A stretch of DNA of 64,000 nt, taken from Gammaproteobacteria bacterium. Its GTDB lineage: Bacteria > Pseudomonadota > Gammaproteobacteria > SZUA-229. Position 1 is the stretch's first letter; every line of letters starts with the position of its first letter. The position numbers and the translations under genes are program-made. This document shows positions 54,718 to 55,214 of this stretch, piece by piece. Location of the stretch: positions 50,165 to 114,164 of the forward strand of contig JAOUKT010000002.1 in the NCBI GenBank assembly GCA_029882395.1. The letters are read 5' to 3'. The notes beneath the pieces were generated by a model. That model was not told the DNA's origin. It saw only the letters and a list, made by a program, of their open reading frames with translations, and ran no database searches.

Positions 54718-55214
54718 CGACAGACCTGGTATTGTGTTGCTGATCTTGAAATATACCAGATTTAACAAAAGCTTATCTAAAAAGCTTTATGATTCACCTG
54801 ATGAATTATGAGAAATGACGGCATTTAATAGGCGCATTATATTTTTTTTGCCTGATAAAGCTGCTATATTATATGCCCCCTCTAGGACAGAGCAGTTTGT
54901 TATTGCATTTTGTTTTTTCTAAGTTATTGATTTTAAAGCATTAATGTCAATAGCTTAGGAATAATGAAAGTAATGGAGCTGAGGAAGATTGAAGGGATAC
55001 TGAAGTAACTATCCCATATGGGATAGGGTGGGTATATGTGAACACCCCATAGGTAGGGTGTTCGGGTTGGTGAGTGAGACCTAAAATACCCGCACTCAAA
55101 GATTTGGTGGCGCGTCATATTAATCTATGGATTTTGTGAAGGCGTCAAATTTAAGAATTTTTATTAAACAGTCGGTTAACCGCACTGTCGATCAAATATT
55201 AAGGAGATCGCCCC

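Follow-up and report, generated by a model that had tools for sequence, protein, structure and literature searches.

Sequence comparison identified a palindrome upstream of dsrA as a genuine element that is conserved before the dsr genes in about 90 gammaproteobacterial loci. The palindrome was analyzed in a stretch of 64,000 nucleotides (hereafter the window) of contig JAOUKT010000002.1, positions 50,165 to 114,164, from Gammaproteobacteria bacterium assembly GCA_029882395.1 (lineage SZUA-229). In this window a dsr operon diverges from genes for a sensor histidine kinase, a NarL-family response regulator and a rhodanese. On balance we consider it probable that the palindrome is the operator of a NarL-family regulator in an activator-dependent sigma-70 promoter of the operon that begins dsrABEFHCMKL. 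In marine sediments, in symbioses and in blooms of phototrophs, the oxidation of sulfur is driven by the reverse dissimilatory sulfite reductase pathway. To our knowledge, how the reverse dsr genes are switched on has so far been essentially unknown. No described dsr operator or dsr-linked two-component system was found in the literature searched, which is not proof of novelty.

Results

The palindrome and its conservation upstream of dsrA

The intergenic region between the divergent kinase gene and dsrA spans positions 54718-55214. The motifs that an earlier reading of this DNA (the original prediction) had placed 145-225 nt upstream of the dsrA ATG at 55215 were all present in the sequence at that distance. 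The central palindrome, formed by TATCCC at 55010-55015 and GGGATA at 55020-55025, is perfect over the 16 bp claimed (TATCCCATATGGGATA, 55010-55025), but its true extent is 18 bp (arms CTATCCCAT and ATGGGATAG, 55009-55026). The heptamers TATCCCA and TGGGATA, separated by TA, give it a 7-2-7 layout. A second inverted repeat, GAACACCC at 55040-55047 and GGGTGTTC at 55056-55063, was also found, with a spacer of 8 nt rather than the 7 nt given before. A further copy of GGGATA lies upstream at 54994-54999, and TAGGGTG occurs twice, at 55024 and 55054.

By sequence statistics alone the palindrome is only moderately unusual, since three perfect 18-bp palindromes occur in the window where 0.33 are expected under a first-order Markov model. 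GGGATA is not over-represented across the whole window (21 copies observed, 20 expected); its tightest cluster, three copies in 32 nt, is the one at the element. With 2-3 mismatches allowed the palindrome remained single-copy in the 64 kb, and the many dispersed copies that would mark a repetitive extragenic palindrome or a miniature mobile element were not found there.

The decisive evidence that the palindrome is real is its conservation upstream of dsrA, over and above the statistics of the window. The comparison set comprised about 170 related loci (1.69 Mb fetched). It included 80 loci of species-representative genomes with DsrA relatives, 78 of them with enough upstream DNA, and metagenome loci picked through DsrK with 10-kb flanks. 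The degenerate form TAYCYC-N4-GRGRTA was present upstream of dsrA in all 78 genome loci and also in those metagenome loci that cover the promoter. The exact form TATCCC-N4-GGGATA occurred in 25 genome loci, as a single copy that in each case preceded dsrA by 150-375 nt. In the 1.69 Mb, 96 sites fitted the degenerate form exactly, against a chance expectation of about 2: 91 lie in dsrA promoters, three belong to another dsr-linked promoter and two are located elsewhere. The carriers include cultured Chromatiaceae (L025, L034, L041, L045, L054, L062) and Sedimenticola, Thiogranum and Thiohalobacter relatives; Allochromatium vinosum lies outside the examined set. Among the cultured Chromatiaceae with the palindrome are Lamprobacter modestohalophilus DSM 25653, Halochromatium glycolicum DSM 11080, Thiohalocapsa marina DSM 19078, Thiococcus pfennigii, Thiorhodococcus minor and Thioalkalicoccus limnaeus.

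An information profile was calculated from 79 upstream regions aligned on the palindrome without gaps. Only three blocks were informative, namely the palindrome, a second box (box 2) and a hexamer of the TAnAnT type, and no conservation was seen between and around them. In the palindrome, 11 of the 12 specified positions carry 1.1-2.0 bits and nine carry 1.4-2.0 bits, with flanks of about 0. Across the family the half-site reads TAYCYCN by consensus, and its third position is T in 74 of the 90 loci. Box 2 has the family consensus ccacCCCa.ggGtaGgaTtt and begins 16-17 nt after the palindrome in all lineages. The third block takes forms such as TAGACT, TAAAAT, TAGAAT, TATATT and similar, and TAnnnT was found 54-59 nt after the palindrome in 79 of 79 loci, at exactly 56 nt in 58 of them.

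Two further parts of the original prediction did not withstand this comparison. One was an array of three GGGATA half-sites with AGGGTG repeats: the third half-site and the repeat are unconserved. The five closest relatives have TGGATT or AGGAAT in place of the GGGATA at 54994, where the family-wide information is about 0, and the first TAGGGTG copy is not conserved even in these relatives. By this alignment both are probably chance occurrences. The other was the view that the second inverted repeat forms an independent palindromic site. The perfect GAACACCC-N8-GGGTGTTC repeat is restricted to close relatives of the window, with one-sided changes that break it in L117 and L122, and family-wide the region forms an asymmetric box that overlaps the −35 region.

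That the element as a whole consists of chance palindromes, or of a repetitive or mobile palindromic sequence without a specific role at dsrA, has next to no probability in our view. The lack of GGGATA over-representation and the two other perfect 18-bp palindromes of the window would fit such an origin. However, the palindrome is unique in 64 kb, and about 90 loci of diverse lineages, with unconserved flanks, have it in a corresponding position before dsrA. Because of these conservation data, the comparison argues decisively against chance for the palindrome and box 2, and chance appears the best account of the third GGGATA (54994) and the AGGGTG repeat.

Architecture of the predicted dsrA promoter

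The third conserved block was assigned as a putative sigma-70 −10 element, because it has an invariant T, A and final T at a fixed distance. In the window's own lineage CTAAAATA at this position is invariant in six of six sequences. Anchored on this predicted −10 element, the palindrome spans −84 to −69 and box 2 extends from −52 to −33, a predicted layout that resembles the tandem sites of the Escherichia coli ogt promoter. Box 2 itself falls short of a complete 7-2-7 site. Its left part, CACCCCA, follows the left half of the palindrome at an offset of exactly 33 bp and departs from the half-site consensus only at its first base. The right part is a different conserved sequence, and there is no full second palindrome. 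On its minus strand, box 2 of the window also matches the E. coli-type NarL heptamer perfectly (TACCTAT, 55049-55055). A promoter and terminator scan gave no sigma-70 consensus promoter and no terminator at the element. The −35 region is poor in all lineages, and activator dependence is therefore suggested.

Other assignments were tried and rejected. The only plus-strand promoter match, at 54815-54843, is weakly conserved and lies upstream, whereas the family-wide −10 element lies downstream of the conserved element. TAGGGT or TAGGAT within box 2 was discarded as a −10 hexamer because its second base is often G where A is essential, and no conserved −35 counterpart was present. Box 2 and the stretch downstream of the predicted start (about 55108-55123) were compared by eye with sigma-32 (CCCCATNT) and sigma-54 promoters, which they did not fit in spacing and in key bases. 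A 61-residue minus-strand open reading frame (ORF) at 54933-55118 was judged non-coding, as it had no Pfam match and its frame is broken by a 1-nt indel in L001.

Within the predicted 5′ untranslated region, the first ~25 nt (ACCCGCACTCAAAGATTTGGYGGCGCGTCAT, within 55088-55120) and the last 70 nt (55143-55214) are near-invariant in the lineage, and the middle is variable, with indels. The near-invariant ends suggest a further constraint on the sequence at the RNA or DNA level.

The original prediction had offered a structured leader as an alternative to an operator. An RNA-level role would involve alternative hairpins in a long dsrA leader, of the attenuator or riboswitch type, or a small or antisense RNA from the minus strand, and we regard it as very improbable. 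It is true that the region folds better than shuffled sequences (plus strand, z −2.7; minus strand, z −4.2), that GGGATA-N10-TATCCC and TATCCC-N4-GGGATA would form mutually exclusive hairpins and that the consensus-like promoter at 54815-54843 lies upstream. However, an Rfam scan of 54700-55300 with permissive filters returned chance-level matches to eukaryotic microRNAs and small nucleolar RNAs, the best (E 0.09) being an unrelated small nucleolar RNA, and the 5′ arm of the alternative hairpin is missing in all five closest relatives. Furthermore the arms of the palindrome vary independently. In 90 distinct sequences, positions 5/12 are C/G in 52, T/G in 16, C/A in 16 and T/A in 6; the double change T/A was found 6 times against 5.4 expected under independence, without compensatory excess, and 32 of the 90 sequences carry a change that mismatches the hairpin on one strand or the other. 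Such independent variation is expected for a site that is read by two protein monomers. The one-sided changes in L117 and L122 break the second hairpin as well, the conserved −10 lies downstream of the element and the scan showed no terminator-like site. We set the structured leader aside, and the element is predicted from sequence to lie outside the dsrA mRNA.

The linked response regulator and its recognition helix

The proposed binder is the response regulator encoded next to the kinase. Among solved structures E. coli NarL (1a04, E 7.6e-49) is closest to it, followed at a distance by the next best structure (1.8e-31). The recognition helix reads TVKLHVK in the regulator versus TVKVHVK in NarL, its K, L and K being aligned to Lys188, Val189 and Lys192 of NarL. 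These residues of helix α9 make the base contacts in NarL (PMC10853779). The DNA-binding segment SNKVIARNLGISDGTVKLHVKAILRKL, which includes TVKLHVK, is invariant in 39 of 39 orthologs, although their overall identity is only 60-97%. At the sequence level, the invariance of the recognition helix parallels that of the operator.

A NarL site is defined as two inverted 7-bp elements placed 2 bp apart, 16 bp in all (PMC7419079, PMC10853779). The palindrome at 55010-55025 has the 7-2-7 geometry of NarL/NarP sites, the same 16-bp geometry recurs in about 90 loci, and the adjacent regulator encoded at 52561-53214 is of the NarL/FixJ family, as a cognate regulator of such a site would be. Judged by its sequence, the site is NarL-like in geometry, with a half-site of its own.

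Genomic linkage and joint absence

Seven regulator orthologs that were chosen independently of dsr (65-95% identity, long contigs) all adjoin dsr genes. Six of them follow dsrN-dsrR, with the order kinase, regulator and rhodanese where the contig reaches that far, and the seventh is divergent from dsrA as in the window. The rhodanese gene follows the regulator gene in each locus that extends past the regulator. The usual layout of the DsrK-chosen loci has DsrC-like, Cas6-like and TauD-like genes pointing outward, then the palindrome and then dsrABEFHCMKLJOPNR-kinase-regulator-rhodanese. In the window's lineage (L117, L122, L160) the flanking modules are swapped: rhodanese, regulator and kinase stand on the left, pointing away, and to the right dsrR is followed by TauD-like, Cas6-like and DsrC-like genes. 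Because the module occurs in two arrangements, divergent from dsrA or after dsrR, the association has survived rearrangement. With at most one mismatch, the palindrome was present in 19 of 19 DsrK-chosen loci whose sequence takes in the promoter as well as the regulator gene. No internal palindrome was found before the kinase gene where the module follows dsrR, and separate autoregulation is therefore unsupported in that arrangement. A profile search with the regulator returned metagenomic entries only, with no cultured carriers.

The two loci L137 and L143, from one AT-rich lineage, have neither the palindrome nor, within the fetched locus, the kinase-regulator-rhodanese module. They retain the TauD-like, Cas6-like and DsrC-like genes and dsrA through dsrS. 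A 70-residue gene that carries a second operator copy elsewhere (see below) is also absent from them, together with its operator. Taken on comparative grounds, the 7-2-7 geometry, the NarL-like helix, the dsr linkage and this joint absence support the earlier proposal of an operator for the adjacent NarL-type regulator. As a separate observation, a box 2-like remnant, GGGTAGGCTATATAT, is still found upstream of dsrA in L137 and L143.

The palindrome might instead be a genuine dsrA operator with another binder, such as DsrC, the cysteine-less DsrC-like protein, a persulfide sensor of the CsoR/CstR type or a regulator encoded elsewhere, and the linked two-component system would then act elsewhere or only on box 2. 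We hold this to be doubtful, if deserving of serious weight. The DsrC-like, Cas6-like and TauD-like genes are as consistently linked to dsr as the two-component system, and the half-site agrees with the NarL heptamer at only 5/7 positions. DsrC reportedly has a helix-turn-helix-like motif and shifts dsr promoter DNA in the work of Grimm et al. in 2010. The palindrome also resembles the TACCC...GGGTA-like operators that CsoR/CstR-type sensors presumably use. Yet L137 and L143 retain DsrC as well as the DsrC-like, Cas6-like and TauD-like genes, while palindrome and module were lost together. The recognition helix of the regulator is NarL-like and invariant, and NarL uses this 7-2-7 geometry as well as positions close to −77 and −43. 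Furthermore, no CsoR-family gene was seen in the Pfam-annotated dsr neighborhoods, the small ORFs of the window not having been scanned systematically.

Table 1. Coordinates of the predicted promoter elements and neighboring genes in the window
Feature	Position	Strand	Remarks
Distal operator	55010..55025	.	7-2-7 palindrome; consensus TAYCYC-N4-GRGRTA; predicted center about −76.5
Box 2, ACACCCCATAGGTAGGGTGT	55042..55061	+	Conserved block; predicted −52 to −33, overlaps the −35 region
−35 slot, TGTTCG	55059..55064	+	17 bp upstream of the −10; 2/6 match to TTGACA
Predicted −10 of the dsrA promoter, TAAAAT	55082..55087	+	Position conserved, 79 loci
Predicted start and 5′ untranslated region of about 120 nt	55094..55214	+	Start A55094 ± 2, inferred from the −10 position
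Third GGGATA	54994..54999	+	Outside the conserved element
dsrA, first gene of the operon	55215..56471	+	Pfam NIR_SIR domains, ORFs, gene calls in the 95%-identical relative L082
dsrB	56545-57621	+	Same operon; then dsrE, dsrF, dsrH, dsrC, dsrM, dsrK, dsrL to about 63576
Sensor histidine kinase	53260..54717	−	Pfam GAF, HisKA_3, HATPase_c; 485-residue gene call in L082
NarL-family response regulator	52561..53214	−	Pfam receiver and GerE helix-turn-helix; proposed operator binder
Single-domain rhodanese	52065..52535	−	Pfam; active-site loop CRSGNRS, Cys87

A second copy of the proposed operator

Three exact matches outside dsrA promoters were found in the window's lineage, just past the window end (L117 20048-20063; L122 ~20079; L160 ~20226). 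This second copy, TACCCCTATTGGGATA, is followed after 22 nt by an extended −10 element, TGcTATAAT, and its predicted center is thereby near −42.5. The copy precedes a conserved 70-residue ORF (MMDMSDKQEMIKKMIEMQKKF...) that follows the DsrC-like gene and has no Pfam match (L117 20048-20347). In other lineages this gene likewise follows the DsrC-like gene, and nnnCCC-N4-GGGRTA stands in front of it, with TATAAT, TAATAT or TATACT ~22 nt further on, in 11 of the 13 loci inspected; the left arm of the second copy is degenerate in most lineages. These matches indicate, as far as sequence goes, a small regulon centered on the dsr locus.

The palindrome could also be bound by the regulator or another factor and act negatively, as the operator of a repressor or anti-activator or as a roadblock or looping site shared with a divergent promoter, so that dsr would be induced by release of the protein. 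We consider this unlikely. The predicted center at −76.5 is about half a helical turn off the classical class I positions of −71.5 and −82.5, the palindrome is located in a divergent intergenic region, and the second copy overlaps the −35 region of a promoter with a strong extended −10, TGcTATAAT, which is compatible with repression too. On the other hand, the poor −35 region of the dsrA promoter in all lineages implies a need for activation, NarL activates ogt from −77.5 and −44.5, and beyond the palindrome no conserved divergent promoter element occurs at a fixed distance, the information there being about 0.

In L130 a palindrome, TATCCCATTTGGGGTA, was noted at 10196-10211, after dsrS and 29 nt upstream of a 146-residue ORF whose N-terminus has a helix-turn-helix-like segment. 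This palindrome could mark a further target or, in dsrS-bearing lineages, a separate promoter of the genes before the kinase.

The sensor kinase and its possible signal

By hydropathy analysis, the kinase carries two transmembrane helices at its N-terminus, linked by a very short loop. It has no periplasmic domain, and its cytoplasmic GAF domain comes after the helices. The hallmarks of the E. coli Nar regulon were missing: the kinase has no periplasmic nitrate-binding domain, and the orthologs examined all lie in or beside dsr. A role of the GAF domain as a thiol sensor through conserved cysteines was considered and rejected, since its cysteines are not conserved. The constant rhodanese partner, with its intact CRSGNRS loop, hints at sulfane sulfur as the signal. 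Nitrate, redox state or heme ligands are equally possible signals for a GAF kinase.

Other features of the locus and the window

Cas6-like (PF09559), TauD-family dioxygenase and DsrC-like genes are constant companions of gammaproteobacterial dsr genes (L086-L165, L002-L080), and the trio is usually divergent from dsrA. The DsrC-like protein lacks the C-terminal cysteines, and no CRISPR array was seen with the Cas6-like gene. The location of a Cas6-type RNA endonuclease gene next to a polycistronic operon of such length suggests that the mRNA is processed.

Upstream of the palindrome, at 54919-54958, lies an inverted repeat formed by CTAAGTTATTGA and TCAATAGCTTAG with 11 of 12 bases complementary, within a larger 29-nt imperfect repeat (54908-54969). 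Five of six lineage sequences keep the inverted repeat, which is not conserved across families. Judged by its position and sequence, it may be an operator or promoter element of the divergent kinase operon.

The palindrome census of the window also returned a perfect 18-bp palindrome of the GCCAGTTTAAACTGGC type within an ORF (20005-20022) and a perfect 16-bp palindrome within dsrB (57437-57452). Another perfect 18-bp palindrome, TAGTTGTCTAGACAACTA at 46771-46788, fills the 17-nt spacer between consensus TTGACA and TATATT hexamers (46765-46793). The TTGACA/TAGTTGTCTAGACAACTA/TATATT unit sits upstream of the ORF at 46799-47248 and has the appearance of a promoter whose spacer holds an operator.

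Comparison with known systems

At the E. coli ogt promoter, NarL acts at two 7-2-7 sites centered at −77.5 and −44.5, both of which are required (PMC7419079). The dsrA promoter resembles it in having a 16-bp 7-2-7 inverted repeat about 77 bp upstream of the start, which here is predicted. A second site likewise abuts or overlaps a weak −35 region about 33 bp downstream, box 2 being at about −43, and the regulator is of the NarL family with the same base-contacting residues (K, V/L, K). The dsr half-site differs, however, being TAYCYC versus TACYYMT at ogt, and the proximal dsr box is asymmetric with only one regulator-like half. The dsr sensor is a GAF kinase without a periplasmic nitrate-binding domain, the target is sulfur oxidation rather than a nitrate response, and the dsr promoter positions are predicted, not measured.

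The E. coli yeaR promoter has a single NarL 7-2-7 site at −43.5 (PMC10853779). The second operator copy is similar in its center near −42.5, ~22 nt upstream of the −10 element, and in its position before a small conserved gene. It differs in lying outside the 64-kb window and in its left arm, which is degenerate in most lineages (nnnCCC-N4-GGGRTA).

UhpA, another NarL-family regulator, uses a strong distal and a weak proximal site at E. coli uhpT. By analogy only, the dsrA promoter would combine a high-affinity symmetric distal site with a lower-affinity site by the −35 region that is occupied on phosphorylation; sequences and signal are different.

The NarL-family system NreBC of Bacillus licheniformis controls sqr and pdo and is encoded inside a sulfur-oxidation cluster (PMC9918477). 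It amplifies transcription of the cluster on sulfide, and the phosphorylated regulator binds an intergenic site (PMC9918477). NreBC can thus be viewed, by analogy, as a precedent for the induction of sulfide-oxidation genes by a NarL-family system, and it shares with the dsr module the encoding of a NarL-family two-component system within a sulfur-oxidation gene cluster. The differences are the sensor (NreB versus a transmembrane GAF kinase), the pathway (SQR and PDO versus reverse Dsr) and the phylum, and a relation between the operator sequences is not established.

Another related system is dsr of A. vinosum, where the same operon and promoter region are said to be induced by reduced sulfur, with a protein-DNA interaction proposed upstream of dsrA. 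Grimm et al. in 2010 reportedly found sulfur-dependent dsr induction and a possible binding of DsrC to the dsr promoter region. We know of no operator sequence or two-component regulator defined in that work.

Discussion

We propose that the palindrome at 55010-55025 would be the high-affinity site for a dimer of the linked regulator (52561-53214). Box 2, with its one regulator-like half-site, would serve this regulator as a proximal site of low affinity, or else would be bound by a second factor. A signal, possibly reduced or sulfane sulfur as suggested by the co-transcribed rhodanese, would activate the membrane-anchored GAF histidine kinase (53260-54717). The kinase would phosphorylate the regulator, which would then occupy first the distal and then the proximal site, and RNA polymerase would be recruited. 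We infer the transcript start, the binding of the regulator, the signal and activation over repression, the last of these from the weak −35 region and by analogy with ogt. The kinase-regulator system is probably under positive feedback, because the intergenic region that holds the palindrome is shared by both gene sets here, and in other lineages the dsr operon ends with the genes for kinase and regulator. The mechanism is of an ordinary kind, a two-component-regulated, activator-dependent promoter, and represents no new type of system.

Several observations weigh against this proposal. The palindromic heptamers match the E. coli consensus TACYYMT at only five of seven positions (3 and 7 differ), E. 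coli-type NarL heptamers are not notably enriched in 54990-55100, and box 2 contains no recognizable 7-2-7 site and may need a second factor. Every promoter position rests on the predicted −10 element. The palindrome at −76.5 is one base pair off the ogt site, and the helix face that it presents depends on the true start. The presence of the regulator gene was followed in other loci than the 78 species-representative genomes, which include the cultured Chromatiaceae. The joint absence concerns one lineage with two closely related loci, in which the module could be elsewhere in the genome. The sensor domain of the kinase is poorly conserved (about 40% identity), and a search for conserved cysteines in its GAF domain found none. 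Finally, DsrC itself is said by Grimm et al. in 2010 to bind the dsr promoter region of A. vinosum.

A wider reading is put forward tentatively, as possible rather than probable. The module, acting via TAYCYC-N4-GRGRTA, would be the master switch of stored-sulfur oxidation across Gammaproteobacteria, with the rhodanese feeding a sulfane-sulfur signal to the kinase. The regulon would then be the whole dsr operon, including the regulator's own genes, together with the 70-residue protein, and the Cas6-like, TauD-like and cysteine-less DsrC-like genes would add a second, post-transcriptional layer acting on dsr mRNA.

The comparison defines the operator precisely, predicts the layout of the promoter and points to a candidate regulator whose recognition helix is invariant and to a second predicted target gene. 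The operator sequence provides a simple marker by which the dsr regulon can be predicted in metagenome-assembled genomes. The question of how dsr is regulated thereby becomes directly testable, including in cultured Chromatiaceae that carry the same palindrome.

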